This document shows, piece after piece, positions 9,001 through 57,276 of a stretch of DNA of 64,000 nucleotides (positions within the stretch are counted from its first letter, which is position 1; the number at the start of each line of letters is the position of its first letter). Below the pieces are notes generated by a model. That model was not told the origin of the DNA. It searched no databases and was given only the letters and a program-made list of their open reading frames with translations. Made by a program: the position numbers and the translations under genes. This DNA is from Barthelona sp. PCE (Eukaryota), in contig JAUFOR010000002.1 in the NCBI GenBank assembly GCA_040285745.1, positions 1,922,001 to 1,986,000 on the forward strand, written 5' to 3'.

Positions 9001-11181
9001 CGTGAACAAGGTGGTCATTGTGTTCTTTCACCTTCAAAAGCTTGGAAGATTGCTGACGTACTTGAAATGGCACAAGAATTTATTGATGATGATGATGATA
9101 TGGGATGGCTCGATGATGATTACGATGATGATGCTTATCTCTTAGCTTCAGCTCGTTCACTCGCTCAACTTAACTCTCCTCGTGGTGTCCGCTCTACTGC
9201 TGCATTGTTCTCTACAGACTTTGCTGTTGATGAAGATTCGGAATTCTCTGATGAGGAAGTTCAGCGTGAAGATATCGACGAGTTCAAGTTCACTGAACCT
9301 GGTAAGAAGGAGCTTGACACTGAAGCACGTGATGCTCTTCTTGAGCGTCTTCGCATTGCTATGCGTGCTGGTGTCCGTCTTCCAATTACTGCTGTTGATA
9401 TTGAAGTCCTTCTAGACAGTGTTGAAGATGCTGACATTGATACTATACCTTTCAATGAGCTCTATGTTGCTCTACGTGATGCTTGTGATGCTGATAGATC
9501 ATTCTATCTTCGTCGTGATGATGTTCGTGAGTTATACTGGAGCTTCCATCCCTCTACCCGCCCTGATAAGTTGAAACTCATTGAAAATGATTGGACAGAT
9601 TGTCTACCTCAGACTGGTCTTTTCACAAACGATGCCAAGACTTTGAAGAAACTTTTCGTTATTGCCCCCGAAGATCGTGTAACACCTGAAATGAATACTT
9701 TCATTGATGAATTCCGTGATTCAATCAAGACCATTGATGAGAATGAAGGTGGTCTGCTGTATAGCGAGAAGGACCGTGTTCTACTTGAAAAGATTATGAA
9801 TGTTGCTTCTGGCTTTGCCTTTGACATTGCTGCTGAAGTACACTTTGAATCCAAGGTTGTAGACGAACACACACTTGATTCCGATCTTGTTGCTGTTTGC
9901 TTCTCAGTATTCTCCTCTTTGAAGGAGGTTCTTGATGGAGAACTTGAGCGTCGTGTTTACAAGATGCTTAAACATGCCTATAAGGAGAACACATCATTAA
10001 TTTTCACCGAAGAAACAGGTGATGTTCTAGTTAAAATAATGAATGACGCTTTCAAGCCAATTCATTTTGATTGTTTCGTACCATACGAATCTGAACCCGA
10101 ACCTGAATCTGAATCCGAGCCTGAGCGTGAACAAACGCCTGAGCCCGAGCCTGTGGTTGAACCAGAGCCTGTGGTTGAACCCCAACCTGTTGTCATTCCT
10201 CCCATTGACTTACCCACTAAGACTGATGAAGTTGATGACACAGATCTTATTAATGCCATCACTGAGCGCTCTTCCACAGTTGAAGAAGAAGAGCTCGTTG
10301 ATGTCACCCCTGTTGTCGATACTGTTGAAGAGGATACAGATGATTTCGTCTCCGTTATCACTGGCGCCTCTGACATTGAGACAAAACTAGACGACCTTCA
10401 ATCGTTAAGTCCCAAGGCAGATCCTGAGCTTGAAGCCATCCTTGAAGAAGGTATTCCTCAGGAACAGTTCCGTCAGGAGCTATCCTCGCCATTGCCTGCT
10501 GTTCATGCTGACATGCCTCCACTCCAACACATTGCGAATAAGCAAGAAGAAGATGCTGTATCCGCCAGCACTAGTGCTATTCCTATTGATGTAGACTCTG
10601 ATGAAGAGCGTGGTAGCCGTAAGAAGCGCCGTAAGAAGAAGAAGAGAGGCAAGCATAAGACTAAGGCACTTGATGCACTTGAAGCCAAACTCGCTGCCGC
10701 TGCCGCCAAGAATGAAATCAAGGTGGTTAAGGACATCGATCAAAAGGCTCTCAGCAAGGCCAAGAGCGATAAGGTAGTCCTAGAGATTTCTGCTAGATTG
10801 TCAAATATTGGTGTTACTGATGCACCTGTTATGGCACTTTCACCACTTTACGCAAAGAAATTAGCTGAAGTCCTTTCATTCCTTGTTTTCTGGGAACCCA
10901 CAGAAGATGAACAACGTATCATAGATGTCATTCAACAATCTGCTGTTAAACGTCGTCCTATCCTACTTCAAAACGAAGAGGTTGAGATTACACAGACTAT
11001 GATTAATCGCTGTTTGTCTGCAAGTCATACCATTGAAGTCGAAACTAGTGGACGTAAGGGTTTGACAAAGGGTGTATCCATCCAGGATATTAAGAGGAAG
11101 TTCGGTTCACAAGCAGATGTTACCGAACCTACTGATAAGAAACGTAAAAAGAAACGTAGACGTCGTTCTAAAGCATCTTAA
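1..11181 (+). CDS. Giant type-I membrane protein (>3717 aa, 5'-truncated): Gly-rich beta-helix-like repeats, partial EGF-like and PSI-like Cys modules, one TM helix, ~1070-aa acidic cytoplasmic tail
   Basis: Frame 1 is open from base 1. Repeated GGxL/WxxGxI beta-strand motifs run to ~6000. CYPDDCACSYGFDGKSC (~6010-6060); CSAHSNKERCLTYNFCGWCNTTSTC (PSI-like); hydrophobic LLIVGIVFAVLLFIGALIMGY (~7912-7977) followed by RYFKNKKK. Strong C/T-ending codon bias. Confidence 0.85.
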   Translation, partial: FTVQGSLDVMGGDMFGVGTIDISGSVNCKECDFSGNTFSINIAGDFLLDGVMMLTDGPTISIDGGNFEARTGHVNSTNGNALIEVLSGGHLQLSAFTDMYFHGDATDVIEVEGFIDINTIRRNFIDWTLDLRGVVDCIRGINYVTKDSHSRGNWTIASDCTVRFTGGTHQLYSGGMFSGAGSVYLDSATMVVEGVIDLTNAANGFYIKGGILSGRYGMSCPGVIQQNGGTLEFEQLPDGEVYHIGTIVMSESGTLTTEENLIIDNALFVRGGRIVVDKTLVVNGIMEVRGGEITNGGTVVCNDVLNWDNGTISGIGTTLNITAPFNFQNVMYLEDKPVLNIFSTWTYGSGTIVPSGETVINILKDANVDFQVNSAAAVLSGTANIFNIYGNVTLQSTQSVIIDWLSNFHEGSNLFCNSGLIAFNSYAEFESDTVIDVDCTVLLENGTFAMQQHADFSGAGTLDISNATLELNGHLEMSNISNGVILRDSNADFTMISTPRGSITIKSGTLQLDNGNVIFDNLQVIGGDVKMSSHGTIVTINEYMKLNGGTYSLPANSRLIINGEFDWVGDFASTGRVEIGSTGVVNMLHPELISRAVENDGTIHLPHSGVYKIEDLNSRISTSSSGRVFIYNNTRVETFDIDTSLVVDGEVLIYGDVTLKNVKFTGAVHVFEGNVRCETETKFTGELYLWNSSVINFNFGTHQLSGSVEEGTVVVNNASAVLTIGSLDVKNTKFHLTDGQITVTQSSTGATVADPFFTVDGGSMTFNPTASNHSVGVLLLNDGLVTLNGAIYVKQALNITGGEITGTGKVYTEYLFMSNGLITTSSQFYILTDSDMTLTSTTLRDITFVNMGEMRWNSGSITMSNGIFINEASGTLRIIGLDCNFGSTATGIVLINKGLVKKEIFGTTSIAGLQNMGNIRCTGGILQLISESDMSGGSVSLKYGSQLQYKDGSHNMYSSIEGDYTGILSVDGEWTQVSIYASLRVSSIQINEGTVTIYHGASPMIYDNQVSIETFGGVINIGKHPSASSSAKFKNIAVYGGYVNIFNTTRSNNILMNGGDLVIESELQVTSIVTFKNGSVSGAGRLSGGCSIQAVLPNHYTALSIQDYACTQTISVDKGAEIQLSYPFSISSSAKIEVDDGNVRFMPNPWHSPNFEFEINAIKIYKPAVIIESGAKVTLLDSLDLTSEAEIEVDGELTIQSGKSIVFTNGLIHGSGTIVTDTFVWKGGNFNSTGTLTTSQMTIKDSARFKAIAGEYEVTTTSSMKWEAGAINFYDYGKLIIGPGVLAEMTGFTANSYVHNSTVAGIYNYGVFKKLSNAENTEIQGLFNYDDFRHERGKLYLTGFTLSTGKFTVGQPLYIQGVLSLQGTSAEMFVYSTISLIDGVLSLDGASFDLSDRKFNFDNATIEMRNNATLVSSIPLELIDVTLHFKDGISSYVADVEVTESGRILIDDDARIGSIDLNRGLITGSANLTVDNLLLQRGTINSSLVLHVKDLVIDKYDTYVKDTVELNLENGTLLWIGGKLLASDNARVIVDADSSILFDIALEEAVFEFVDNSILVLNGSLHKTDVKPAIISLPSIIIGETGSVYIRDSILQFNGTALIQGNVTHVSGDRVVFLEGTHTVESGASLTVGGASTNVEIYSDELILKGEITMTKLTTNDTIVNVNPSADIEIALLNIVGDTKFTSDICGSFMEVTSFTFNPGVDLTIERVNMSIASNNNWRYGDILLGECAALHIPAGIRFTIDCREDCTIAPAGVYSSTMVPRIDVWGEMYKSGDSVFTLAAFTYLNEGGKLHMHRRHSIFDLGDHKIVGPGTFSMGDTAQIRHISGRLSLPENSHTMLKNNYYLEGGVIHLKADANITIMADFHITAGSLVLEEGTNVTIDGDIASFEMDFNCPLPPNVQDLADDITFWESFCTGTPGIHLLDGTAPVEVSGLILRGGVLKASNDMTFHQLRLIENGVLYALNSNVTFVGNSSLSDHYVRDDDAAVFAGNGFLNIENGYCYPDDCACSYGFDGKSCQSDCSAHSNKERCLTYNFCGWCNTTSTCQLATIAGLPAEGECSEFYFGDVEECVGVSTSAPNSNSILTPVITSSWSNADQLTTFSMNAHYYRGGLTWYLNFAEFDPTERNITNTDNCENHDGDSYVVDGELIERSDFTITAPHANIRGALSNPHYPAYTESTSFWTLTNASCSDISYVGVFSLPNAFSCVEKSSGRPYWEVTGYNNTALLNFKSTLFWAGVVPRYYESLTGDITQDEIIAQGNHTFYEQFVLRSVSNYYATCGASLESATCTPCDLSGCSAYPEISVQFELLDLKLVNTKPGFYYKYEIHMVIHTVSRLGYALNDPSSLKVGDVDLEGERIEVAGEGIHDQYWLIKTAAGSALKNPEAFASQLHVGWIPQYCGLNTTALSSCRAYGGAGLRVRYSTTLRFINTPTFKVNSYVGMVFYASGLTPEVDPSTSLFGPYSVGSTIRAKHFMSINEVDSIDLNALIGKRLEYRLKNVSVCVSDGDMPSWDPENNHFGCADFDPTYLAVDGTAVQGSDATAYKFRIESMQLKSAVVQDDGKMQEDKANLFGTFSFKAPSYAVVTLVNVHVVADLIDVEDGSILKTEHIISPVQVESSAVLRTVVTKPDEGSNTLLIVGIVFAVLLFIGALIMGYRYFKNKKKVVEPKKLLDHSGDDERILRELAELTSLNTNELVTASPKERLLRTMQSLSSLVHTASSANLGSEISDAEFQGHDFDPVDDIIDLESDIDSFDEDYDEDFLQENFIIAQKIEEAIKETVDLLLEVREGERVVQLMSTVAPSAMDDEENQIIAQIQTQVNVNEDPVVDPASCILLNKYINTNETEILGIHSDSIIAKLSTGLTYAARCAPETQLTPVEAECCVQALNEVPLVSYTQREIEVVNSMVQALHGGRLVSLMNDEALTVANMLSRAGLPTWSSTDYAITKLISQLRADARSGDKSVLSPVETERAAICLELIPVGELDPQQAAAVADLLRIREQGGHCVLSPSKAWKIADVLEMAQEFIDDDDDMGWLDDDYDDDAYLLASARSLAQLNSPRGVRSTAALFSTDFAVDEDSEFSDEEVQREDIDEFKFTEPGKKELDTEARDALLERLRIAMRAGVRLPITAVDIEVLLDSVEDADIDTIPFNELYVALRDACDADRSFYLRRDDVRELYWSFHPSTRPDKLKLIENDWTDCLPQTGLFTNDAKTLKKLFVIAPEDRVTPEMNTFIDEFRDSIKTIDENEGGLLYSEKDRVLLEKIMNVASGFAFDIAAEVHFESKVVDEHTLDSDLVAVCFSVFSSLKEVLDGELERRVYKMLKHAYKENTSLIFTEETGDVLVKIMNDAFKPIHFDCFVPYESEPEPESESEPEREQTPEPEPVVEPEPVVEPQPVVIPPIDLPTKTDEVDDTDLINAITERSSTVEEEELVDVTPVVDTVEEDTDDFVSVITGASDIETKLDDLQSLSPKADPELEAILEEGIPQEQFRQELSSPLPAVHADMPPLQHIANKQEEDAVSASTSAIPIDVDSDEERGSRKKRRKKKKRGKHKTKALDALEAKLAAAAAKNEIKVVKDIDQKALSKAKSDKVVLEISARLSNIGVTDAPVMALSPLYAKKLAEVLSFLVFWEPTEDEQRIIDVIQQSAVKRRPILLQNEEVEITQTMINRCLSASHTIEVETSGRKGLTKGVSIQDIKRKFGSQADVTEPTDKKRKKKRRRRSKAS

Positions 11182-13303: not shown

Positions 13304-16300
13304 TTACTGTTCATAAGCAACTCTGGTGTATTCGTCTTCACAGGCCATGCGAATGCGATCACATGAAGCAGGAAATCCAATTTGCGGCACCTCATCCAAA
13401 TCCACTGATGTTCTGAAAGAGTTGACTGCACTAACAATAGCTTCATAGATGGAATAACCAAGGACAAAGGGTGGCTCACCTACTCCTTTGGATCCACGAA
13501 CCGCACGATCATTAACAGGCATATCCAGCATATAAATACGCATGTCTCTGGGAATATCAGTATATGATGGAATCTTATAATATGCTGGTCCGGGTCCGAA
13601 TACGGCTCCGTTGGGCATACGCAAAACTTCCTCAATTGTGTTCCAACCAGTACCTTGAACGAAGGCACCTTCAATTTGACCAATATCAATGGAAGGATTG
13701 ATGGAACGACCCAGATCCATACAGATATCTGTTCTAAGAATCTTGAAATAACCAGTGAGAGTATCAACTTCAACTTCACTGACTGCTGAACCGTAGGTGA
13801 AATAGTTGAATGGATGACCTGTCTTGGTCTCCCAATCCCACCCATTAATAGGAGTGGCATAGTAACCATATGCACTTGTGGGAACACGGTTCAAAAATGC
13901 CTGTAAGCACAATACGCTAAATTCAGCATCAGGATACTTTTCTCTAATGGGAATAAGGTTAGCATTAATCTCTTCACACGCATTTTTAACGGCAGCACAG
14001 TTAAGATCAGCTCCTGTCGATGCAGCAGTGGGTGATGTGTTGGCAACCTTGTCTGTAGCAGTCTCGGTAACATGGACCTTCTCTAATGGTACACCAAGCA
14101 CCTCGCTTGCAATCTGTGCCACCTTTGTGTGAACACCTTGACCCATCTCAATACCACCATGTGAAATGAATACAGATCCATCTTGGTAACAATGAACGAG
14201 TGCAGAAGCCTTGTTCATCATTTTGTTAGTAAATGAGATTCCGAACTTCATCGTCATGTGACTAAGCCCGCGTTTAACACGCTTATGTGTAGCATTGAAG
14301 GCAGCAACTTCCTCTTGACGACGACGGAGATCAGCAAGTGTGACAACCTCATCAAAAGTATGCAAAAGATGATTGTCGTTCAAAATCATGCCAAAATGCG
14401 TCTTAGCAGCTTCACCCATAAGGTTAGCGCGTTTCATAGCGAATAATTCCTTCTTGAGTACAATAGCTCCATGTCTTACAATAACCTCACCAGCGTTATG
14501 TGCAGCGGGTAATCCGAAACCTCGGAAAGCAGTCATTGAAGGCTTGTTAGTTTGACAGATCTTACCATTAACATAAAGATAAGGCCATTTAAAACCTGCG
14601 TCAATGTGGAACATCGAGCGTTCAATCATTGCAACACTGAGATCCCATGAGAATCCTGCATCAGCATAAATTGTGGTGTGTAAAGCGTGACAAGTACCAT
14701 CAGCCTTGAAACCAGCCTTGTATTTGATGAGGTAAGGCTGTCTCTTACCGGTTAACAACATATCATCTTGTCTTCCGAGGTTAAATCGACAAGGCCTGTT
14801 GGTTTTGTGTGCAGCAAGTGCAGCAAGACCACACCATAGATAATTACACTCCTTTCCACCGAATGCACCTCCACAACGACGCACCTTTGCGATAACGCGG
14901 TTGCTATCGATACCCAGGATACGTGATACTGAAGACTGTGCACCAGAAGGTGACTGAGTGCTGTAATAGAGTTGATACTCCTCACCAGGAACAACAACAG
15001 CATTGTTATTCTCCATATAAAAGTGTTCCTGTTCGGGAGTCTTGACTTCACCTTCAACCACAACGTCACAGCCTTCTAACTCAGTCATGACAGTCTCGAG
15101 AGAATGATCATCATTAGAGATATACCTTTCGAAATCAAAGTAACACTCCTTAGCAATTGCATCTTCAATCGTGACGACGGCATCCAGTTCCTCGTACTCA
15201 ATTTTGGCCTTCTTTGCTGCCAACCATGCGACCTTATTGGTGGTAGCAACGACTAGCGCAATTGGTTGACCATAGTAAAGACACTCGTTCGTTACAAGAT
15301 ACTCCTCATCTTTTGAAATAGCACCAGTTGCATTCTTACCCGGGATATCATCGGCTGTAATCACTGAAACAACACCTTCTACGTCCCATACATCAGAGTA
15401 ATCCGCAGAAATAATACGTGCATGAGGCTTTGTTGTCTTAACAACTGCAACATGAAGCATATGAGGTGCCTCAACATCGACAGAGTACTCAGCTTCACCA
15501 GTGGCGTGAAGATAACCTGCAAGGTGCATTTTATCTGTGCCAGCATCAGTGGTGGATTTCTCATCCTTGTAGTGCTGCTCACCACGTGACATTGTGTGTT
15601 CAATGGGTTCGTAGGGATCGAGATTAAGCTCGTCAAGCATGTGACGGTTGCCGCGCTCGGTACACACATAAGAAATAAATTGAACAATAATTGACTGAAG
15701 CATGGTACGACGATAAGGAATAATTCCACCAGGAGCGTTATCTGATAAAGGCAGCTCTGCACGAACACTTTCTACCAGACTGTGCACGGTATCTATATCG
15801 AAAGGCTTGCCATTCATCTCAGTCATTGTCTTGTTAGCCATAACAACCCATGGAGCCATACCACCAAAGGATAAACGCAGCTCTGCGATGATGCCATCAA
15901 CGATTCTGATGAGGAAACCACCGTTAATGATGGAGATATCATCTTCAAGACGTCGACATTGCTTCATAGCATGTGTGAAAGTGAATTCATCTACCTTAGG
16001 AATGATCACCTTTGAAACGAACTCAAACTCCTCAAGATCAACTTTCTTGTATCCCTTGACAAAAGAATCTGCGCGGACACGGCGCGATGACCCTTCCTTT
16101 GCATTAACAATCACGTATTCAGCGTTAACAGCCATTAGAACGGGGATAGCATCCGCAATAGGTGCAGAGTTAACAACGTTGCCAGCGAGTGTTGCGACAC
16201 TTCTGATCATACGGTTAGCAAAAAAAGTGAGCTGATGTGCCAAAGTAAAAAGAGGGCGAAGCTCAGGAATTTTTTCTACAGTTTTAACGAATTTTTGAAT

Positions 16301-17152
16301 ATGAAGCAAGGGAGTCATTGCACCAATTGTAATTGCCTCACCTTCGACATCAATACCTGCATAATCGGACATTAGATGAAGAGAGATACAGGAAGGAAAT
16401 TCAGAATCAAAGAGAAGCTGTTCAATCTTAATTTCACTCAGACCTGAAATGAATTTGGGACATGAATCCATCTCGTTGACAATAGCAATGAGATCCTGCA
16501 GGGTTGTAGGAACATAAATATCTACATTTGAGTAATTAAATGAAATAGAAGTGGGGATGCGTAAATTAGGAACGTTTAAGTTCAAGAAATTAGTGGGTAG
16601 ATCTTCGTTACACCTCTTCTTAATGTCATCGGAACAATCATGGGCAAAGGATTTAGCTGCGTCAAGGATAGGACGATAACCAGTGCAACGACACAGATTG
16701 CAATCAAAAGATTCTTCAATCTCTGCCATAGATGGGAGACGGCCTCCTAGTTCCTGCTTTGTTTCAAGTAAGAAACTGACAATAGCCATAACAATACCTG
16801 GTGTGCAAAAACCACACTGAGTACCGTGAAATTCTGCCACACGTTTCTGAATAATGTGAAGCTCGGTTGAGACGGATCCCAGGCCGGCAGCTGTCCAAAC
16901 AGCGCTGTTATGTAGATAATAAATCGGAGTCATACATCCCAACAATGCTCTGTAACGTAAATCACCTGTGGTGGTCATTGAAGCAACAAGAACGGTACAT
17001 GCACCACAACCGCCTTCTGAACAGGCGACTTTGACACTTTTTATACCCATTACTTCTCTAAAATAGCTTGAAACAGACATTAAAGGATCTATTGTATGAT
17101 TAACTTCATATTTTAACCCATTAAGGAAGAAACTTATCTGACGGCTTTTCAT
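13304..17152 (-). CDS. XDH: Xanthine dehydrogenase/oxidase (single-chain 2Fe-2S/FAD/Moco)
   Basis: CSEGGCGAC, QCGFCTPG and CRCTGY Fe-S motifs; GGAFGGKE (Glu802-equivalent), IER (Arg880-equivalent), TAFRGFG and GVGEPP (catalytic Glu) are all present. Confidence 0.93.
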   Translation of the reverse strand: MKSRQISFFLNGLKYEVNHTIDPLMSVSSYFREVMGIKSVKVACSEGGCGACTVLVASMTTTGDLRYRALLGCMTPIYYLHNSAVWTAAGLGSVSTELHIIQKRVAEFHGTQCGFCTPGIVMAIVSFLLETKQELGGRLPSMAEIEESFDCNLCRCTGYRPILDAAKSFAHDCSDDIKKRCNEDLPTNFLNLNVPNLRIPTSISFNYSNVDIYVPTTLQDLIAIVNEMDSCPKFISGLSEIKIEQLLFDSEFPSCISLHLMSDYAGIDVEGEAITIGAMTPLLHIQKFVKTVEKIPELRPLFTLAHQLTFFANRMIRSVATLAGNVVNSAPIADAIPVLMAVNAEYVIVNAKEGSSRRVRADSFVKGYKKVDLEEFEFVSKVIIPKVDEFTFTHAMKQCRRLEDDISIINGGFLIRIVDGIIAELRLSFGGMAPWVVMANKTMTEMNGKPFDIDTVHSLVESVRAELPLSDNAPGGIIPYRRTMLQSIIVQFISYVCTERGNRHMLDELNLDPYEPIEHTMSRGEQHYKDEKSTTDAGTDKMHLAGYLHATGEAEYSVDVEAPHMLHVAVVKTTKPHARIISADYSDVWDVEGVVSVITADDIPGKNATGAISKDEEYLVTNECLYYGQPIALVVATTNKVAWLAAKKAKIEYEELDAVVTIEDAIAKECYFDFERYISNDDHSLETVMTELEGCDVVVEGEVKTPEQEHFYMENNNAVVVPGEEYQLYYSTQSPSGAQSSVSRILGIDSNRVIAKVRRCGGAFGGKECNYLWCGLAALAAHKTNRPCRFNLGRQDDMLLTGKRQPYLIKYKAGFKADGTCHALHTTIYADAGFSWDLSVAMIERSMFHIDAGFKWPYLYVNGKICQTNKPSMTAFRGFGLPAAHNAGEVIVRHGAIVLKKELFAMKRANLMGEAAKTHFGMILNDNHLLHTFDEVVTLADLRRRQEEVAAFNATHKRVKRGLSHMTMKFGISFTNKMMNKASALVHCYQDGSVFISHGGIEMGQGVHTKVAQIASEVLGVPLEKVHVTETATDKVANTSPTAASTGADLNCAAVKNACEEINANLIPIREKYPDAEFSVLCLQAFLNRVPTSAYGYYATPINGWDWETKTGHPFNYFTYGSAVSEVEVDTLTGYFKILRTDICMDLGRSINPSIDIGQIEGAFVQGTGWNTIEEVLRMPNGAVFGPGPAYYKIPSYTDIPRDMRIYMLDMPVNDRAVRGSKGVGEPPFVLGYSIYEAIVSAVNSFRTSVDLDEVPQIGFPASCDRIRMACEDEYTRVAYEQ

Positions 17153-21408: not shown

Positions 21409-24400
21409 TTAAAGTTTTTCAACCTTGACAGCACAGAACTTAAGCTGAGGGATTTTTGCTTGAGGATCAACAACATCAATCGTCAAATCATTTGCGGCAG
21501 CCTCTTGGAAATGGAAAGGAACGAATACAACACCAGGAGCGATGTTCTTAACCTTAACAGCACACTCGATTGTACCTCTGCGGCTGGAGACACGAACCAT
21601 CTCACCGTTCTCAACACCTAACTTAGCGCAGTCTTCATTGCTGATTTCAACGAAACAGTTGGGTGCCATCTTGTTTAGTGTGGCACAACGACGAGTCATT
21701 GTACCGGTATGGTAGTGAGCGAGAATACGACCAGTTGAAAGAACGAAGGGGTATTCGTTGTTGGGGAGTTCAGCTGGATCTTCTACTTCGACAGCACAGA
21801 ATGATCCCTTTCCACTTGTGGAACGGAACCAATCGATGTGTAGAATGGGAGTACCGGGATGATACTTTGACCAACAGGGAATATGAATACCCTTGAGCTC
21901 ATCAACACGCTCGGAAAGAACACCACGGTAAAGAGCTGTGGTTTCAGCGATTTCATTGGTGATCTCGCTGGCCTTGGTGTAGTTCATGTTAGTCTTACCC
22001 ATTGCCTTAGCAATCATGCTGACAATTTCCCAATCGGGCTTGCTTACACCAGGAGCTTCGTGAGCCTTGACGATAGGCTGGACACGACGCTCGGTGTTGG
22101 TAGCAGTGCCGAATTTCTCAGCAAGAGCAGCAGCGGGAAGGACAACGTGAGCCTTCTCAGCAGTGGGAGTCATAAAGATGTCTTGGACAACCAGGAAATC
22201 AACGATATCAAGAGCGTGCTTGACATGGTTGGCGTTGGCATCAGAAACAACAGGGTTCTCACCCATGATGTACATACCCTTAACCTTTTTGTCATCAGTG
22301 ATAGCATGGAACATTTCAGTAATAGTTAAACCAACCTCCTTGGGGATCTCAGATTCCCAAACGGACTCCATGATCTTATATTCAGGGTTGGTAGTATCAG
22401 CGACACTGAGATAACCAGGTAAAACGTTGGGGAGTGCACCTAAATCGCAGGCACCCTGGACGTTCATCTGACCACGAAGGGGGTTAACACCAGCTCCTGG
22501 TTTACCGAGGTTACCAGTAGCGAGTGCAAGGTTAGCAATACAACGAACGTTGTTGGTACCAAAGGTGTGTTGTGTGAGACCCATACAGTAAATGATGGAA
22601 GCAGGATCGTTTTCACCATACCAATGAGCAGCAGTGCGAATATCCTCAGCAGCAAGACCGGTGATTTCACTGGCGTACTCAAGAGTATACTTCATAACGT
22701 GCTCGCGAGTTTCCTCGAAGCCTGTAGTCTTGTTAGCAATGAATTGCTCATCAACAAGACCGGAGACAATAAGCTCACGGAGCATGGCGTTGAGGAATGC
22801 AATATCTGTACCGGGACGAATCTGCAGATACAAATCAGCCTTCTTAGCGAGGTTAATCTCACGAGGATCAACAACAATGAGCTTGGCACCGCTCTTAACA
22901 GCCTTTGTAACCGACTGTGAACCAACAGGGTGAGCCTCAGTGGTATTGGAACCAATCACGAGGATACACTTAGCCTCTTCCAGATCAGCAAAGGTGTTGG
23001 TCATGTGACCGGAACCAAATGCGTTACGAAGACCAACGACAGTAGAAGCGTGACAAAGACGAGCGCAGTGATCAACGTTGTTAGTGCCAACAGTAGTACG
23101 CATAAACTTCTGGAATGCGTAGTTATCTTCGTTAGTGCAACGAGCAGAACTGAGACCAGCAATGGCATCAGGACCATGTTCAGCCTTGATAGCTGCGAAA
23201 CGCTCAGAAATGAGGGTAATGGCCTCTTCCCAGGATGCTTCCTTAAAGGAACCATCCTCTTGACGGATAAGAGGTGTCTTAAGACGATCCTCGCTATCGA
23301 GGAAGTCCATACCCTTGAGACCCTTAATACAGAGACGACCCTTGTTGACAGGAGCCTTCTTGTTACCAGAGCACTTGACAATCTTGCCATCCTCAGTCTG
23401 AATAGTAACACCACAACCTACACCACAGTAAGGACAGATGGTATCAGTGCTGTTAACGTCCTCAATATCGACCTCAGCCTTGGGGGCAGCAACAGCCTTT
23501 GGAGCAGGAGCCTTCTTACCAAGGAAAGCAACCTCAAGATCAGTAACGAAAGCAGCAATAGCAGCCTCAACGTTACCATCCTTCGACTCATCACCCTTAT
23601 GGAAGGAAACGCAAGTAGCCTTGGCATTCTCCATAGCCTCCTTGAACAAATCAGCACACTTGCAGAAGAGCTCATAGTTGGAATCACCCAAACCAAAGAC
23701 ACCAAACTTGAATTTGGACAAGTTCTTCATCTTTGAAAGAGCAGTGTAGAGGGATTCAGCCTCAGCAGGGAACTCGCCATCACCAACAGTGGACGTGACA
23801 AGAACAACCTGCTCGAACTTCCACATGGCCTTGAATGATGTCTTAGCCATAGGGATGACAGTTTCTGTACCAAGCTTCTTGGCAACAGTGCGGGCAATAC
23901 CCTCAGCGTTTCCTGTTTCAGATCCGTAAACAACACAGATGGGGGCAGAAGCAGACTCCTCGGCCTTAGCGTTGGGATCAAGCATGTCCTTCATCTTTGC
24001 GAGACGAATCTGACGCATCTTGGTATCGTGCTCAAGCTCTTCTTGGAGCATGGCAGCACGCTCAGGATCGGAACGCTTAAGAGTGTGGAAACGTACCTCC
24101 TTATCGAGTAAGGCGGTCAATGGCTTGGATGGAGCGCGATGATCGATAATGAGAGGGTTCTTACCCTTGGCAACGAGGTCAGGGTTATATCTATAGAGAG
24201 GCCAGTAACCGGTCTCAACAGCAAGCTTACCTTCAATGTCAGACTCACCCATACCCTTACGGATACCGTGGTTAATACAGGGACAGTAAGCAATGACGAT
24301 AGAAGGACCATCAAATGCCTCAGCCTCTTGAATTGCACGAAGGGCCTGCATCTTGTTAGCACCAAGAGCAATAGAGGCAACGTAAACGTTACCAATGTTC

Positions 24401-27400
24401 ATGGCGAGAAGACCAAGATCCTTCTTGGAAGTAACCTTACCAGCAGCGGCGAAACGAGCAACACCGGCACGAGGTGTGGCCTTTGAGACCTGACCGCCAG
24501 TGTTCGAATAGACTTCAGTGTCCATAACGAGAATGTTAGTGTTATCAGGCATGTTAAGCACCTGATCGACACCACCATAACCGATATCGTAAGCCCAACC
24601 GTCACCGCCGAAGATCCAGGGAACAGGGCGGATGAAGAGGTGACGAGATGCAAAGACGGCCTGAAGAAGGGCATCGTTGCGGGTCTGAATGAGAGCCTCA
24701 ACCTCCTTGACAATGACATCTGTCATTTCACGAGTGGGATCAGCAGTCTCGAGCCAGGTAGTGAGGAGCTCCTTGAGCTGAGCGGGAAGCTCGGTCTTTA
24801 GAAGCTTTGCAACATCACCAACGAGACGTTCACGTCTGTTGCGAAGAGCAGCAGTCATACCAAGACCAACCTCAGCGGCAGCCTCGAATAGAGTACCGTT
24901 AAAAGCGGGACCACGACCAAACTCGTCCTGACCCCAAGCAGAAGCGGGGTACATACCACCCCAAACAAGAGAACAACCGCATGCATCAGCAATGTAAAGA
25001 CGGTCACCCCAGTTACGACAAATGAGAGATGCAGTGGAGGTTTCAACACAACCAGCACAAGCTCCGGAGAATTCCAAGTAGGGGTTGTGGAACTGGACGT
25101 CACGCAATACCTTACGAGGGAACTTCTCACCGTGAGCGGGAAGAGAAACAGCAGTCTCCCAGTTCTGAACCTCAACAAGGTTGTCAGAAACGTTCTGCAT
25201 GTCAAGCGCATCCTTAGGACAGATGGTAGTACAGACGGTACATTGCATACAATCGAGAGGAGAAACTTGAATACGGTATTGGAAATCCTGCTTACCCTTG
25301 AATTTAAGAGTGTTGAACTCCTCAGTAACCTCATCCTCAGCAGCAACGAGGAAAGGACGGATGGCAGAGTGTGCACAGACAGATGTACACAGGTTACACT
25401 GTACACAATTGTCAGAGATCCAGACGGGGATCTTCAGAGCAACACCACGCTTCTCGTATTTGGAGGTACCAGTTGGAATAACACCACCAGTAACCTTGTG
25501 GAACTTAGAAACGGGGATTGAATCACCCTCAAGCTTAGAACACGGAAGAATGACATCAGTGAACCACTCGGGGGTATCCTCGGGCCAGGCAGGGTGCTGC
25601 TCGATGGGGGTAGTAGCCCAGGACTCGGGGACATCAACCTTGATAAGGTTAGCAAGAGCCTCATCGACGGCACGCATGTTAGCCTCAACAATGGCGTCAC
25701 CCTTGTGACCATAGGTCTTAACAATTGCCTTCTTGAGAAGAGCAATAGCTTCCTCAATGGGAATAACCTGTGAAAGCTTGAAGAAGACGGTGTTCATAAC
25801 CATATTGATACGGTTAGGAAGACCTGCGTTTTCAGCAACAGTGAAAGCGTCGATAACGTAGAAATCAACATTCTTAGCAGCAATAGCACGCTTCATAGAA
25901 CCAGGGAGCTCCTTGTCTAACTCCTCAAAATCAATGTTAGGAGTGTTAAGGACAAAAGCAGATCCGGGCTTGGCGAACTTCAACATGTTGAAGTGGTGCA
26001 CGAAAGCGGGGTTGTGACAGGCAACGTAATCAGCATGACGAACACAGTACTCGGAAGTAATGGGATCGGGGCCGAAACGCATGTTGGAGACGGTGAAACC
26101 ACCAGACTTCTTTGCATCGTATTGGAAGTAACCTTGAGCGTAGTTGGTTGTGTTATCACCAATAATCTTGATTGCGTTCTTACCAGCACCAACTGTACCA
26201 TCAGAACCAAGAGCAAAGACGACAGCCTGCTTACATGTCTCAGGAAGTGCATCAACCTCATCAGGCAGCTCAAGATGAGAGAATAGAACGTCATCAAGGA
26301 TACCAACGTTAAAATCACGTTTGGGCTCCTCTACAATCATATTGTTGATGACAGCGACAGCATGAGTAGCAGTGAAATCCTTACCACCAACACCGTAGCG
26401 ACCAGGCACAACAGTGATCTCAGGACGGTTCTCATAGAGACACTCGTTAACTGAGAGGTAGAGAGGCTCACCAATGGCACCAGGCTCGTGAGTCTTGTCA
26501 ATAACTGTAACAGTCTTAACAGAAGCAGGAAGAGCGCCAAGAAGGTGCTTGTTGGAGAAGGGACGGAAAAGACGGACCTTGATGAGACCAATCCTTCTAC
26601 CCTGAGAGTTGAGCAAGTTAATAGCTTCCTCAACTGCTGTGGAACCGGCACCCATCATAACAACAACTTGTTCAGCATCGGCAGCACCAACGTAATCAAA
26701 GAGGTTGTAAGAACGACCAGTGAGCTTAGAAACTTGATCCATACAGCTCTGAATGATATCAGGGATGGCGTTGTAGTAGGGCTCAGCAGCTTGAAGGAAT
26801 TGCCAATAGATGTCAGCGTTTTCTACACCACCACGTTCAGAGGGGTTGTAGTTGTTCATTGAACGCCACTTACGATACTTGGCAAGAGCTTCGAAATCAT
26901 ACATAGCAGCAATCTCCTCTGGGGTAATGATGTTAATCTTGTTAACTTCGTGAGAGATACGCATACCATCAAAGAAATGCATGATAGGTAAGCAAGTCTT
27001 AACTGTAGCAAGGTGTGAAACAACAGCGAGATCCATAACTTCCTGGACTGTGTTCGATGAAAGCATGGAGAAACCGGTCTGACGACAGGCCATGACATCG
27101 GAATGATCACAGAAGATATTCATTGCCTGACCAGCAACGGCACGAGAAGCAACATGGAAAACGGTGGGGAGCATCTCACCAGCGAGCTTGAACATCTCAG
27201 GTACCATAAGCATGAGACCTTGTGAACAAGTGAAGGTAGCAGTGAGGGCACCAGCGCAAGCAGCACCGTGAAGAGCTCCAGCAACACCACCTTCAGATTG
27301 CATCTGCATGGCACCAACAACACGGTTAAAGATGTTCTTGGTACCCTTGGAACGCCAAATATCAGCGTATTCGCACATTGGACTTGAAGGAGTGATGGGG

Positions 27401-30400
27401 TATTGGAATACCATATCAACGGCATAATAGGAAGCAAGGAGAGCAGCCTGATTACCATCAACGGTCTGCCAAACTTCCTGACGCTGAGCGGGGAGCTGAG
27501 TGATACGGAGAGGAGGAACAACCTCGGGAGCAACCTTGACGGGCTCAGGGATATCTCTCTTGTGCTCGAGCATGGACTCGTAGTAATCCTTCATGGAGAG
27601 AAGACGACCGTTAGCCTGATCGATATCCTGCTGAAGAGCCTTCTGCAGTTCAGCAGCACGTTCGGGCTGGGAACGCATAAGAGTGTGGAAACGAACCTCG
27701 TTCTGGAGGAAGAGGCTGAGATCCTTGGAAGCGGGCTTCGAATCGATAATGAGAGGGTTCTTACCCTTGGCAATGAGATCGGGGTTGTATCTATAAAGAG
27801 GCCAGTAACCGGTCTGAACAGCAAGCTTAGCTTCAATGTCAGATTGGGTCATACCCTTACGGATACCGTGGTTAATACAAGGACAGTAAGCAATAACAAC
27901 TGAAGGACCATCATAAGCCTCAGCCTCTTGGAAAGCCTTAAGAGTTTGAACCTTGTTGGCACCAATAGCAACAGAGGCAACATAAACGTTACCAATGGTC
28001 ATGGCGTGAAGGCCTAGACTCTTCTTACCAGTAGCCTTACCGGCAGCAGCAAAACGAGCAACACCAGCACGAGGAGTAGCCTTTGAGACCTGACCACCAG
28101 TGTTGGAATATACTTCAGTATCCATAACGAGGATGTTAATGTTACCAGCCATGTTAAGCACCTGATCAACACCACCGAAACCAATATCGTAAGCCCAACC
28201 GTCACCACCGAGAATCCAGGGAACGGGACGAACTAAAAGATGCTGGTTGGCAATGATGTTCTTCATTGTGGGATGAGGGTGATCAGCAGGAAGTAACTTA
28301 TGGACAGCATCAGCAACGATTTGCTCAATGTATTCGTCCTTATCAACGATTGCTAACCAGTTCTTGAAAGCCTCAATGAGCTCAGTGCTAACATTAACCT
28401 CTTCAGGATAAGCGATAACTGAACGAATATCAGCAATAACACTATCACGCATATAGAAAAGACCAGCAGTTAAACCGGCACCAACCTCAGCGGTATCCTC
28501 AAAGAGGGTACCCAGGAAAGAGGGTCCTCGGCCAAACTCGTTCTTACCCCATGCAGAAGCGGGGTACATACCACCCCAGACTAGGGAGCAACCGCAAGCA
28601 TCAGCAATGTAAAGACGATCACCGAACATCTGTGTAAGGAGCTTGGCGTGTTGAGTTTCAGCACAACCGGCACAAGCGCCAGAGAATTCGAGAAGGGGTT
28701 GATGGAACTGAACGTCGCGCAACACCTTAAGAGGGAATTCTTCACCATGAGCAGGAAGCTCCATGGTCTTCTCCCAGTTAAGAATTTGCTCAGGATCCTC
28801 ATCAACGTCAACCATTGAAAGGGCGCTCTTGGGACAAGCAGTAGTACAGACAGTACAACCCATACAATCAAGAGGGGAGACCTGAATGCGGTACTTGAAA
28901 TCACCGGGTGCCTTACCACGGAGTGGAAGCATCTCAATGTTCTCAGGAACGATATCCTCATCAGTTGCAAGAACAGGACGGATAGCGGCGTGAGCGCAAA
29001 CTGTTGAGCACAAGTTACATTGGACACACTTACCAGACTCCCACTGGGGGATCTTGAGTGTGACACCACGCTTCTCGTACTTGGAAGTACCAGTGGGAAT
29101 AACACCACCAACAACGTCCTTGAACTTGGAGACGGGAATGTTCTCACCTTCAAGCTTGGAACAAGGAAGAATGACATCAGTGAACCATTCAGGGACATCA
29201 TCAGGGAACTTGGTGACTTCCTCAATTGGAGCTTCCTTCCAGTTCTCAGGGACATCAACCTTAATGAGATGAGCTAATGCCTCATCGACGGCACGCATGT
29301 TGGCCTCAACAATGGCATCACCCTTATGTCCGTAGGTCTTGATGATAGCTTTCTTAAGAAGAGCAATAGCTTCCTCAAGAGGAAGAACCTCAGAGAGTTT
29401 GAAGAAAACAGTGTTCAAAACCATATTAATACGGTTAGGAAGACCAGCCTTTTCGGCAACATCGAAAGCATCGATAACGTAAAAGTTAATGTTCTTGTTA
29501 GCGATTTCGCGTTTCATGCTGCTGGGGAGCTCCTTGTTAAGAGATTCAAAATCAGTGTGAGTGATATTAAGAACAAAGTTAGCACCTTGCTTTGCGTGTT
29601 TAAGCATAGCAAAGTGATGAATGAATGTAGGGTTGTGACAGGCAATGTAATCAGCGTTACGAACACAGTATTCGGAAGTGATTGGATCAGGACCGAAACG
29701 CATGTTTGAAACGGTGAAACCACCAGACTTCTTAGCATCGTACTGGAAGTATCCTTGGGCAAAGTTATCAGTGTTGTCACCAATAATCTTAATGGCATTC
29801 TTACCAGCACCAACAGAACCGTCAGCACCAAGAGCGTAAACCAAACATTGGGTAGTAGTTTCGGGGATTGGATCAACGACAGGGGGAAGTTCAAGGGAAG
29901 AATTGAGTAAATCGTCAGTGATACCAATGTTGAAGTCGAGCTTGGGCTCAGCCTTCATAGCGTTTTGGTAAACAGCAAGGGCGTGGGTAGGGGTGAAGTC
30001 CTTACCACCAAGGCCGTAACGACCAGGGATGACCTTAACATGACGCTTAAGCTCGGCAAGAGCAGCGCAGACATCAAGGTAAAGGGGTTCACCATTAGAA
30101 CCAGGTTCGTGTGTCTTGTCTAAGACGGTGATAGTCTTGACAGAGGCGGGGATAGCCTCGTCAAGATGGACAGCAGAAAAGGGACGGAAGAGACGGACTA
30201 CAACACAGCCAACCTTGCCACCCTGATTGTTAAGGTACTCGGAGATTTCACAAGCAGCGTTAACACCTGAACCCATCATGATAACAACGTGTTCAGCATC
30301 GGGAGCACCGTAGTACTCGTAAAGCTTGTATTGACGGCCAGTTAGTTGAGCAACCTGATCCATACAACCCTGAATGATCTCAGGGACAGCCTTGAAATAT

Positions 30401-31131
30401 GGTTCTGCAGCCTGAAGGAATTGCCAATAAATGTCAGCGTTCTCGACACCACCGCGTTCGTCAGGGCGGTCAGTGTTCATAGAACGGCGCTCACGCCATT
30501 TCATAAGGGCGTCGTGATCATACAAAGCAGCCATTTCCTCAGTGGTCATAACATCAACCTTGTTAACCTCATGAGAGATACGCATACCATCATAAAAGTG
30601 CATGACGGGGACGGTTGACTTGATAGCTGCGAGATGTGAAACAACAGCCAAATCAGCAACTTCCTGAACAGTGTTGGATGAGAGAATTGTGAAACCTGTT
30701 TGACGACAGGCCATGACATCGGAGTGATCACAGAAGATATCCATAGCCTGACCGGCAACTGCACGTGATGATACGTGGAAGACGGTTGGATGAAGTTCAC
30801 CAGCTAATTTAAACATGGTGGGAACCATGAGAAGCAGACCCTGAGAACAGGTTGCTGTGGATGTCAAGGAACCTGCGCTTGAGGCACCGTTAAGTGCTGC
30901 AGCGACACCACCTTCTGATTGCATTTGAATAGTATTCGTAACACAATCAAAAATGTTCAACTTGCCTTGTGTGCTGAGTGTATTGCTTAACTCACTTGCG
31001 CTTGATGCTGGAGTGATAGGATAGAGCAATGTTATATCGGTGTACGCATATGACGCATTGACTGCAGCTGTATTTCCGTCAATTGAACGGTAATTTGGTT
31101 GTCTACCATTGGAAAGCCTTTCTTTGTTCAT
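21409..31131 (-). CDS. Fusion protein: PFO - PFO - flavodoxin - formate dehydrogenase (FdhF-type molybdopterin subunit), 3240 aa
   Basis: PFO1 ~31090-27590 and PFO2 ~27470-23990, each with YPITP, QSEGG, two CxxCxxCxxxC ferredoxin motifs, SGACAGC, GDGWAYDIG, YSNTGGQ and YCPC. Flavodoxin ~23940-23521 (YGSETGNAE, STVGDGE, GLGDSNY). FDH ~23450-21409 (CPYCGVGC, LCIKG, DHCARLCH, PLRGQMNVQG, STGRILAHYHTGTMTRR). No stops, and uniform strong codon bias. Confidence 0.95.
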   Translation of the reverse strand: MNKERLSNGRQPNYRSIDGNTAAVNASYAYTDITLLYPITPASSASELSNTLSTQGKLNIFDCVTNTIQMQSEGGVAAALNGASSAGSLTSTATCSQGLLLMVPTMFKLAGELHPTVFHVSSRAVAGQAMDIFCDHSDVMACRQTGFTILSSNTVQEVADLAVVSHLAAIKSTVPVMHFYDGMRISHEVNKVDVMTTEEMAALYDHDALMKWRERRSMNTDRPDERGGVENADIYWQFLQAAEPYFKAVPEIIQGCMDQVAQLTGRQYKLYEYYGAPDAEHVVIMMGSGVNAACEISEYLNNQGGKVGCVVVRLFRPFSAVHLDEAIPASVKTITVLDKTHEPGSNGEPLYLDVCAALAELKRHVKVIPGRYGLGGKDFTPTHALAVYQNAMKAEPKLDFNIGITDDLLNSSLELPPVVDPIPETTTQCLVYALGADGSVGAGKNAIKIIGDNTDNFAQGYFQYDAKKSGGFTVSNMRFGPDPITSEYCVRNADYIACHNPTFIHHFAMLKHAKQGANFVLNITHTDFESLNKELPSSMKREIANKNINFYVIDAFDVAEKAGLPNRINMVLNTVFFKLSEVLPLEEAIALLKKAIIKTYGHKGDAIVEANMRAVDEALAHLIKVDVPENWKEAPIEEVTKFPDDVPEWFTDVILPCSKLEGENIPVSKFKDVVGGVIPTGTSKYEKRGVTLKIPQWESGKCVQCNLCSTVCAHAAIRPVLATDEDIVPENIEMLPLRGKAPGDFKYRIQVSPLDCMGCTVCTTACPKSALSMVDVDEDPEQILNWEKTMELPAHGEEFPLKVLRDVQFHQPLLEFSGACAGCAETQHAKLLTQMFGDRLYIADACGCSLVWGGMYPASAWGKNEFGRGPSFLGTLFEDTAEVGAGLTAGLFYMRDSVIADIRSVIAYPEEVNVSTELIEAFKNWLAIVDKDEYIEQIVADAVHKLLPADHPHPTMKNIIANQHLLVRPVPWILGGDGWAYDIGFGGVDQVLNMAGNINILVMDTEVYSNTGGQVSKATPRAGVARFAAAGKATGKKSLGLHAMTIGNVYVASVAIGANKVQTLKAFQEAEAYDGPSVVIAYCPCINHGIRKGMTQSDIEAKLAVQTGYWPLYRYNPDLIAKGKNPLIIDSKPASKDLSLFLQNEVRFHTLMRSQPERAAELQKALQQDIDQANGRLLSMKDYYESMLEHKRDIPEPVKVAPEVVPPLRITQLPAQRQEVWQTVDGNQAALLASYYAVDMVFQYPITPSSPMCEYADIWRSKGTKNIFNRVVGAMQMQSEGGVAGALHGAACAGALTATFTCSQGLMLMVPEMFKLAGEMLPTVFHVASRAVAGQAMNIFCDHSDVMACRQTGFSMLSSNTVQEVMDLAVVSHLATVKTCLPIMHFFDGMRISHEVNKINIITPEEIAAMYDFEALAKYRKWRSMNNYNPSERGGVENADIYWQFLQAAEPYYNAIPDIIQSCMDQVSKLTGRSYNLFDYVGAADAEQVVVMMGAGSTAVEEAINLLNSQGRRIGLIKVRLFRPFSNKHLLGALPASVKTVTVIDKTHEPGAIGEPLYLSVNECLYENRPEITVVPGRYGVGGKDFTATHAVAVINNMIVEEPKRDFNVGILDDVLFSHLELPDEVDALPETCKQAVVFALGSDGTVGAGKNAIKIIGDNTTNYAQGYFQYDAKKSGGFTVSNMRFGPDPITSEYCVRHADYVACHNPAFVHHFNMLKFAKPGSAFVLNTPNIDFEELDKELPGSMKRAIAAKNVDFYVIDAFTVAENAGLPNRINMVMNTVFFKLSQVIPIEEAIALLKKAIVKTYGHKGDAIVEANMRAVDEALANLIKVDVPESWATTPIEQHPAWPEDTPEWFTDVILPCSKLEGDSIPVSKFHKVTGGVIPTGTSKYEKRGVALKIPVWISDNCVQCNLCTSVCAHSAIRPFLVAAEDEVTEEFNTLKFKGKQDFQYRIQVSPLDCMQCTVCTTICPKDALDMQNVSDNLVEVQNWETAVSLPAHGEKFPRKVLRDVQFHNPYLEFSGACAGCVETSTASLICRNWGDRLYIADACGCSLVWGGMYPASAWGQDEFGRGPAFNGTLFEAAAEVGLGMTAALRNRRERLVGDVAKLLKTELPAQLKELLTTWLETADPTREMTDVIVKEVEALIQTRNDALLQAVFASRHLFIRPVPWIFGGDGWAYDIGYGGVDQVLNMPDNTNILVMDTEVYSNTGGQVSKATPRAGVARFAAAGKVTSKKDLGLLAMNIGNVYVASIALGANKMQALRAIQEAEAFDGPSIVIAYCPCINHGIRKGMGESDIEGKLAVETGYWPLYRYNPDLVAKGKNPLIIDHRAPSKPLTALLDKEVRFHTLKRSDPERAAMLQEELEHDTKMRQIRLAKMKDMLDPNAKAEESASAPICVVYGSETGNAEGIARTVAKKLGTETVIPMAKTSFKAMWKFEQVVLVTSTVGDGEFPAEAESLYTALSKMKNLSKFKFGVFGLGDSNYELFCKCADLFKEAMENAKATCVSFHKGDESKDGNVEAAIAAFVTDLEVAFLGKKAPAPKAVAAPKAEVDIEDVNSTDTICPYCGVGCGVTIQTEDGKIVKCSGNKKAPVNKGRLCIKGLKGMDFLDSEDRLKTPLIRQEDGSFKEASWEEAITLISERFAAIKAEHGPDAIAGLSSARCTNEDNYAFQKFMRTTVGTNNVDHCARLCHASTVVGLRNAFGSGHMTNTFADLEEAKCILVIGSNTTEAHPVGSQSVTKAVKSGAKLIVVDPREINLAKKADLYLQIRPGTDIAFLNAMLRELIVSGLVDEQFIANKTTGFEETREHVMKYTLEYASEITGLAAEDIRTAAHWYGENDPASIIYCMGLTQHTFGTNNVRCIANLALATGNLGKPGAGVNPLRGQMNVQGACDLGALPNVLPGYLSVADTTNPEYKIMESVWESEIPKEVGLTITEMFHAITDDKKVKGMYIMGENPVVSDANANHVKHALDIVDFLVVQDIFMTPTAEKAHVVLPAAALAEKFGTATNTERRVQPIVKAHEAPGVSKPDWEIVSMIAKAMGKTNMNYTKASEITNEIAETTALYRGVLSERVDELKGIHIPCWSKYHPGTPILHIDWFRSTSGKGSFCAVEVEDPAELPNNEYPFVLSTGRILAHYHTGTMTRRCATLNKMAPNCFVEISNEDCAKLGVENGEMVRVSSRRGTIECAVKVKNIAPGVVFVPFHFQEAAANDLTIDVVDPQAKIPQLKFCAVKVEKL
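23990..31090 (-). repeat. Intragenic tandem duplication of the PFO unit (~3.6 kb period)
   Basis: Near-identical DNA tracts at an exact 3600-nt offset (e.g. 24142-24290 vs 27742-27890); identical peptides such as FQYDAKKSGGFTVSNMRFGPDPITSEYCVR. Confidence 0.92.
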
Positions 31132-56992: not shown

Positions 56993-57276
56993 AAGAATAG
57001 TTATTACAAGTTCCAATTTGACATTCGATTTTCTGACTTAGATTCCCCCCGTTTTGGTTTCTAAGTCCCGCTTTTTAGTAATAAAATTTTCATTTAAGCG
57101 ACCTTTAATGTAGTGGTTTTTGCAGGCTTCCTTTTATAGCACTTTGAGCCAACAAATAACTTTAATATTTGCTGTAGCTACAGTGATTCCCCTAAAATTA
57201 TTCAAAGTTAGCTGTACAACAATAGTGGTTCTGATTTCACATACTATATCTCTTTCGCGGGTTAAACATAAAACTT

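Follow-up and report, generated by a model that had tools for sequence, protein, structure and literature searches.

What would a metal-dependent formate dehydrogenase (FDH) of the DMSO reductase family be doing on a eukaryotic chromosome? The question is raised by 64,000 nucleotides of the genome of Barthelona sp. PCE (contig JAUFOR010000002.1, positions 1,922,001 to 1,986,000; hereafter the window, with all coordinates counted from its first base), where a first-pass annotation had described a stand-alone FDH domain at 21409..23450. The domain is present, but its in-frame module runs from 21412 to 23451 on the minus strand, with the TAA stop codon at 21409-21411, and it does not stand alone. 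It makes up the C-terminal 21% of a single uninterrupted minus-strand open reading frame (ORF) of 9,723 nt (21409..31131), whose 3240-aa product (P0001, estimated at ~355 kDa) also carries two pyruvate:ferredoxin oxidoreductase (PFOR) units and a flavodoxin, which alters the functional reading of the domain. Pfam places the four modules in the order PFOR-PFOR-flavodoxin-FDH. The first PFOR (27547..31131, residues 1-1195) comprises POR_N, PFOR_II, POR, EKR, and Fer4, and is followed by a second, complete PFOR (23980..27546, residues 1196-2384). The flavodoxin module and its linkers occupy 23452..23979 (residues 2385-2560), with the Flavodoxin_1 match itself at 23563-23934 (residues 2400-2523; 78.5 bits), and the FDH catalytic module (residues 2561-3240) consists of Molybdop_Fe4S4, Molybdopterin, and Molydop_binding, matched up to residue 3234. 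Pfam found neither a FAD_binding_1 or NAD_binding_1 domain in the protein, where the FDH module comes after the flavodoxin instead, nor a domain of pyruvate formate-lyase (PFL) or any other glycine-radical domain; a hydrogenase domain was likewise absent from the protein and from the window ORFs scanned with Pfam.

The same design occurs in a second species. Among proteins of 1782-5670 residues, the only other high-score match to the flavodoxin-FDH part was a 3266-aa ORF from the EukProt transcriptome of the metamonad Barthelona sp. PAP020, which repeats the four modules in identical order and shares their motifs. The two proteins are 54-58% identical in the PFOR modules, 38% in the flavodoxin, and 57% in the FDH. 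Because the arrangement is conserved in Barthelona sp. PAP020, we regard it as old and under selection, and the fusion as evidently real, older than the split of the two species and retained since. Wider searches added no further example. A query made of the C-terminus of the second PFOR, the flavodoxin, and the FDH was run against a representative library of 1.84 billion proteins, and the 150 best matches were all confined to the FDH part; since both the query's own protein and P0002 were missing from the list, this blank is weak. The ESM Atlas returned plain PFOR clusters only (score 0.75), and a metagenome scan with an alignment of the flavodoxin module (A2) gave 199 pattern matches, none of which was confirmed.

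The identity of the C-terminal module is well defined. It scored 849.4 bits with the TIGR01591 model ('formate dehydrogenase subunit alpha'; cut-off 666.25), which it matches from end to end (positions 1-672 of 672 in a module of 680 aa), and the models for thiosulfate reductase and the remaining members of the DMSO reductase family stayed far short of their cut-offs. Its best solved relative is the F420-dependent FDH 9t1s_L (746 bits), and further matches include FdhF of the hydrogen-dependent CO2 reductase (HDCR; 7qv7_S), 7bkb_D, and E. coli FdhH (1aa6_A). All the motifs named in the first-pass annotation were found in the minus-strand frame. CPYCGVGC, with cysteines 1-3 of the [4Fe-4S] motif, is encoded at 23413..23436 (residues 2566-2573), and LCIKG, which holds the fourth cluster cysteine and the conserved lysine, at 23320-23334 (residues 2600-2604). 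DHCARLCH (residues 2687-2694) has the TGT cysteine codon of the metal-ligand position at 23053-23055 and, adjacent to it, the CAC histidine codon at 23050-23052, while the PLRGQ motif is part of NPLRGQ (residues 2883-2888), whose arginine (22474..22476, residue 2886) takes the conserved active-site position. The enzyme was therefore correctly described as a cysteine variant: selenocysteine at the ligand position is ruled out by the TGT codon, and in this respect the module differs from E. coli FdhH, where the ligand is selenocysteine. The residues C6, C9, C13, C41, K43, C133, H134, and R326 of the module are invariant with respect to 17 prokaryotic matches (alignment A1), and the module retains every one of the 35 columns with 95% or higher conservation among 209 prokaryotic FDH rows. 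The ligand cysteine, the histidine, the arginine, the lysine, and the same 35 of 35 columns are kept in the PAP020 module as well, and by this measure the FDH module appears to be free of any sign of decay.

Two alternatives for the module can be weighed against these data. In the first, it would have no molybdenum or tungsten cofactor and would serve as a structural or electron-transfer scaffold, like the FDH-like domain of NuoG in complex I. Orphan genes of the DMSO reductase family do occur in some genomes that have no full pathway for the molybdenum cofactor (Moco), as described in part of PMC6147048, but the conservation of ligands and columns in both Barthelona proteins, the score of the FDH model against those of the NuoG models (166-199 bits, far under their cut-offs), and the presence next door of a gene for a Moco-dependent xanthine dehydrogenase (XDH) make such a relic quite improbable. 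In the second, the module would act on nitrate or another oxyanion, or would let formate drive a pyruvate synthase. The DMSO reductase family is functionally plastic, and the models for NasC and NapA do appear as secondary matches, but their scores, 552 bits for NasC (cut-off 1100) and 377 for NapA (cut-off 904), are too low, so that the FDH equivalog alone lies above its cut-off. Moreover, the ten top solved relatives are all FDHs or the FDH-like YjgC, and the module falls among FdhA and FdhF rows in trees, which hold no nitrate reductase rows, while pyruvate synthesis by the reverse of the PFL reaction would be uphill and would answer no obvious need in a phagotroph. We thus consider both versions of this second alternative very improbable, and read the module as an FDH of the DMSO reductase family, as the first-pass annotation had done.

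The two PFOR units are as complete as the FDH. Both contain in one chain the domain set of single-subunit PFORs, including the 2x[4Fe-4S] ferredoxin and thiamine-diphosphate domains. In a search for structural relatives, which was run on the first module only, it aligned over its full length with the solved Moorella and Desulfovibrio enzymes (6cin_A, 1220 bits over residues 15-1169; 1b0p_A, 1190 bits). The GGDGW thiamine-diphosphate motif, two CxxCxxCxxxC motifs, and four further cysteines are kept in all four PFOR modules of the two species; we take the 12 conserved cysteines to be cluster ligands, by analogy with the D. africanus PFOR structure. PFOR acts as a homodimer, so the tandem repeat can supply a dimer within one chain, and each covalent dimer would then carry a single flavodoxin-FDH arm. 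The window modules are 67.7% identical to one another, each being closer to the other than to the PAP020 modules, and a tree of PFOR modules rooted on a PNO-type PFOR (see below) had the form (B2,(B1,(A1,A2))), with the two window modules (A1+A2) at 100/100. An ancestral tandem followed by homogenisation or re-duplication in the lineage of the window organism is a likely history. Near the C-termini of the two modules, identity at the third codon position of identical residues climbs to 0.86, and this rise in synonymous-site identity is suggestive of gene conversion between tandem copies. As the N-terminus is only ~11-15 residues longer than those of the solved PFORs, there is no obvious targeting peptide, and the giant enzyme is probably cytosolic.

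The flavodoxin module, in turn, can be aligned to flavodoxins of the short-chain class and to the FMN domains of two enzymes, sulfite reductase and nitric oxide synthase. To judge by these alignments, it retains three loops of the FMN site, one that binds phosphate and two that flank the isoalloxazine (GSETGNAEG, STVGDGEF, and GLGDSNYELFC), and in both species it is flanked on either side by low-complexity linkers, rich in Ala/Pro/Lys or in Lys/Glu, which differ between the species in length and sequence. To judge from these motifs, all the cofactor sites of both PFOR units, the flavodoxin, and the FDH are intact.

Could a gene of this kind be an artefact, that is, a bacterial contaminant or a chimeric assembly in which bacterial PFOR and FDH genes have been united? 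The G+C content of the gene (0.47-0.49) is somewhat above that of most neighbors, which would favor this explanation, and its G+C content at third codon positions (GC3) is 0.44-0.50, against 0.27-0.39 in most neighbors. However, the same GC3 is found in the genes for GAPDH (0.50), a class-II lyase (0.49), and a P4-ATPase (0.46) in the same window, and so the value seems to fit the better-expressed genes of the host. The 9.7-kb frame is also unbroken and lies on a 2.13 Mb contig among eukaryote-typical genes: a Vps23 core and UEV gene directly downstream, the P4-ATPase, a phospholipid flippase, and genes for WD40, leucine-rich repeat (LRR), and HAT-repeat proteins. The location on a eukaryotic chromosome given by the first-pass annotation is borne out by these neighbors. 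The same four-module ORF occurs, moreover, in the independent transcriptome of PAP020, and two public DNA runs, possibly of the source sample, contain short contigs that match the window gene exactly. Three DNA runs of one study were searched: two of them yielded short exact pieces at low depth, unrelated PFOR fragments were also present, and no piece in the three runs crossed from one module into the next with 31 letters to either side. Overall, an artefact is scarcely credible.

Where did the FDH module come from? The best prokaryotic proteins are 52-56% identical to it, and the list of matches is flat, with 771-816 bits for the best 120, spread over many bacterial and archaeal phyla and over architectures of 680 and 900 residues. 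Two unusual prokaryotic fusions were noted among FDH matches: P0151 (representative library, 1131 aa), with an N-terminal membrane domain of the RnfD/NqrB family, and P0126, with a C-terminal NuoE-like 2Fe-2S domain of the thioredoxin type. The trees were built on 212 rows and on subsamples of 60 and 35 of these. A protein had to match at least 560 residues of the 680-residue query and a locus at least 600, which admitted 131 of 151 proteins and all 80 loci. The window and PAP020 modules were sisters in every tree (FastTree with 212 rows, support 100; quick LG+G4 with 60 rows, SH-aLRT 100; careful LG+G4 with 35 rows, 100/100). Two of the three trees placed the pair beside a small bacterial group made of a Vulcanimicrobiota metagenome-assembled genome (P0128) and a 1409-residue GltD-FDH fusion from Vibrio (P0130), with support of 98 and 96; the backbone of the careful 35-row tree was without resolution. 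The pair thus appears nested inside the prokaryotic FDH radiation, and because it falls among prokaryotic FDHs, a lateral origin is the simplest reading. The transfer from an anaerobic prokaryote proposed in the first-pass annotation is therefore sustained as to the lateral origin, but the donor group cannot be named. A methanogen donor, an idea that came from the best solved match being an F420-FDH, was rejected, since the pair never groups with archaeal rows in any tree.

A second eukaryote-labelled sequence bears on this question. The top match in a 50%-representative library was a transcript from the anaerobic jakobid Stygiella incarcerata (P0125; 1589 aa, 704 bits), also an FDH fusion, in which the FDH is preceded by a GltD-like NAD(P)H module and followed by a C-terminal MobA-like guanylyltransferase domain. 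P0125 and the two metamonad FDHs formed a clade with 60 rows (SH-aLRT 87), which was absent with 212 or 35 rows and was present in 37% of bootstrap trees. Forcing them together gave a tree that outscored the quick unconstrained one by 22 log-likelihood units (AU p 0.75), so a single eukaryotic clade appears neither rejected nor shown and depends on sampling. In the flanks of 80 prokaryotic FDH loci we found a MobA-like gene in 7 and, upstream, a GltD-like gene in at least 10. P0125 resembles a bacterial gltD-fdhA-mobA operon fused into one ORF, a gene order seen, for example, in L067, and it could be a bacterial contaminant of the Stygiella transcriptome. No mention of an FDH in Stygiella was found in the literature searched, and a search of proteins 30-872 aa long gave no MobA-like relative of the C-terminal domain of P0125 (0 of 304 candidates).

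What reaction, then, would the fusion catalyze? We propose that a single-chain PFOR dimer feeds the FDH through the flavodoxin, with the net reaction pyruvate + CoA → acetyl-CoA + formate, a proposal that we hold to be evenly balanced between right and wrong. The two PFOR units would fold together as a covalent version of the usual homodimer, each converting pyruvate and CoA into acetyl-CoA, CO2, and a pair of electrons. The pair would leave by way of three [4Fe-4S] clusters and reach FMN in the tethered flavodoxin, which would swing over to the FDH's own [4Fe-4S] cluster, and the Mo/W-bis-pterin center would there reduce CO2 to formate. The stoichiometry is balanced, with two electrons per pyruvate and two per CO2. 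Since the midpoint potentials are ~-500 mV for pyruvate/acetyl-CoA+CO2 and ~-430 mV for CO2/formate, the CO2-reducing direction would be downhill. The outcome would be the PFL reaction without radical chemistry, and formate would be an electron sink independent of ferredoxin and hydrogenase. PFL itself has no sequence relationship to the window protein; it has an identical predicted net reaction, which it carries out by radical chemistry with an activating enzyme, whereas the route proposed here would use the redox chemistry of thiamine diphosphate, Fe-S clusters, FMN, and Mo/W.

Known systems provide parallels for each half of this scheme. The flavodoxin region was matched by P0003, a PFOR with Flavodoxin_1 and FAD/NAD domains, which we take to be of the pyruvate:NADP+ oxidoreductase (PNO) type, a name used for the Euglena and Cryptosporidium enzymes in which PFOR is fused to a module like cytochrome P450 reductase. 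It is likewise a eukaryotic fusion of bacterial-type parts, with a single-subunit PFOR and a C-terminal FMN module as electron exit, for which it offers a precedent. It differs from the window protein in having a FAD/NADP+ module where the latter has an Mo/W FDH, with CO2 rather than NADP+ as the presumed acceptor, and the window protein also carries PFOR twice in tandem. Its design is most economically read as PNO-like, with the FDH in place of the NADP+ reductase as terminal module. On the other side, HDCR FdhF, the F420-FDH, and E. coli FdhH share the catalytic module (525-746 bits) and its active-site residues, and these systems too connect a donor of low potential to a site for CO2/formate. 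Their donor is a hydrogenase, an F420 subunit, or a module of the NuoEF type, and in the window protein it would be the fused PFOR pair acting through the flavodoxin; formate hydrogenlyase and HDCR have a hydrogenase module wired to the FDH, unlike the window protein and the window. Taken further, the protein would be a self-contained 'pyruvate:CO2 oxidoreductase', with a covalent PFOR dimer, a swinging flavodoxin, and a CO2-reducing Mo/W-bis-MGD site (MGD, molybdopterin guanine dinucleotide), and would act as the main electron sink of a eukaryote without matured hydrogenase. This fuller version we advance tentatively and would place somewhat short of an even bet.

The chief rival keeps the same chain of cofactors and reverses the flow. 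Here the FDH would oxidize formate, for example from PFL, to CO2, and the electrons would pass through the flavodoxin and the PFOR Fe-S chain to ferredoxin and then to a hydrogenase or another acceptor, so that pyruvate and formate would share one exit and the FDH would be an input resembling that of formate hydrogenlyase. Metal-dependent FDHs are reversible, and the closest solved relatives include the formate-oxidizing F420-FDH 9t1s_L and E. coli FdhH 1aa6_A. However, formate (-430 mV) is a weaker reductant than pyruvate, and PFOR turnover would drive electrons toward the FDH; the C-terminal FMN module, besides, is an exit in known PFOR fusions such as P0003. The literature on BaSk metamonads can be read both ways. 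According to passages of PMC11316075, these organisms have PFL and express it at a high level, which favors the rival, but the hydrogenase maturases HydE/F/G are missing from every member, which speaks against it and leaves room for another electron sink. The same source reports several PFO copies, some of them with additional 'ferredoxin or flavodoxin-like' domains. On balance, we consider formate oxidation unlikely, though it merits serious attention.

Several points count against our proposal that the fusion makes formate from pyruvate. The highly expressed PFL reported in BaSk metamonads would make a second route to formate redundant, and equally suggests a formate-oxidizing role. Both the direction of electron flow and the membership of the window organism in BaSk are inferred. 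Among the 80 prokaryotic FDH loci none had a PFOR or flavodoxin gene in its flanks, so the sample offers no prokaryotic precedent for the association. Lastly, a bis-MGD FDH needs MobA and FdhD, and no mobA or fdhD gene, which the first-pass annotation expected to have been co-acquired elsewhere in the genome, lies within the 64-kb window; a 'pyruvate:CO2 oxidoreductase', if the reading is true, needs complete bis-MGD maturation by these proteins in the eukaryotic cytosol. On the side of cofactor supply, the XDH/aldehyde oxidase gene mentioned above (13304-17152, minus strand) is 4 kb from the fusion and codes for a 1282-aa single chain of the animal type, with 2Fe-2S and FAD domains and two Moco-binding domains (874 bits to rat XDH). 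Because this eukaryote-type XDH is encoded so close by, its presence implies that the organism makes the molybdopterin cofactor, that is, that basic Moco synthesis would be in place.

The remainder of the window has the character of a very compact eukaryotic genome; taken with the fusion shared with PAP020, this compactness points to an anaerobe that is probably a barthelonid-like metamonad. Genes are spaced by tens to hundreds of bases, many gaps being under 100 bp, and nothing in the window would require an intron. TAA, TAG, and TGA all terminate ORFs here, and a variant genetic code was rejected as the three standard stops are in use. There are no tRNA genes or Rfam matches in the 64 kb. 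The Pfam scan took in 21 other window ORFs, drawn from the 24 other separate ORFs that reach 200 aa, plus a 186-aa LRR ORF, and omitted three overlapping or open-ended frames; 8 of the 21 had no Pfam match. Two very long ORFs gave no match at E <= 1e-5, one at 28-11181 (plus strand, 3717 aa, open at the window start) and one at 52121-57016 (minus strand, 1631 aa). GC3 in the window falls into two classes, ~0.44-0.50 in metabolic genes and 0.27-0.39 in others, and the lyase, of the class-II fumarase/aspartase type (45504-46853, plus strand), and GAPDH (49946-50968, plus strand), both of high GC3, sit among trafficking genes.

How new is such an enzyme? The view in the first-pass annotation that the family is essentially prokaryotic agrees with reviews, since the DMSO reductase family, including all metal-dependent FDHs, is still called prokaryote-only in passages of PMC13397495 and PMC4633490. 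It is at odds with passages of PMC8887013 and PMC10711303, which report FdhF and a NifU-FdhD fusion in the Archamoebae Pelomyxa schiedti and Mastigella eilhardi. These FdhF proteins, compared here by their published description, are likewise FDHs of the DMSO reductase family in an anaerobic eukaryote and imply a eukaryotic maturation route, and the passages describing them do not mention a PFOR fusion. As FdhF is known from Pelomyxa and Mastigella, a eukaryotic FDH of this family is in itself not new. The four-module fusion is unmentioned in the main texts searched, although supplementary tables may list it. In particular, the main-text portions of PMC11316075 do not mention formate dehydrogenase (its Supplementary Data 2 may list the architecture), 'formate' is absent from the earlier Barthelona paper (PMC7542792), and in the 2026 PFOR review (PMC13768988) the terms 'molybd' and 'tandem' do not occur and the passages matching our search terms do not include the fusion.

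The window thus holds a chromosomal eukaryotic metal-dependent FDH with, as far as its motifs indicate, every catalytic residue intact, conserved in two species. From the fusion of this FDH to PFOR we predict an activity that we found nowhere described, the radical-free conversion of pyruvate into acetyl-CoA and formate on one polypeptide. If this prediction is true, bis-MGD cofactor maturation would be required in a eukaryote, the metabolic map of anaerobic protists that lack hydrogenase maturases would have to be revised, and the protein would be a natural one-chain CO2 reductase powered by a cheap organic donor.

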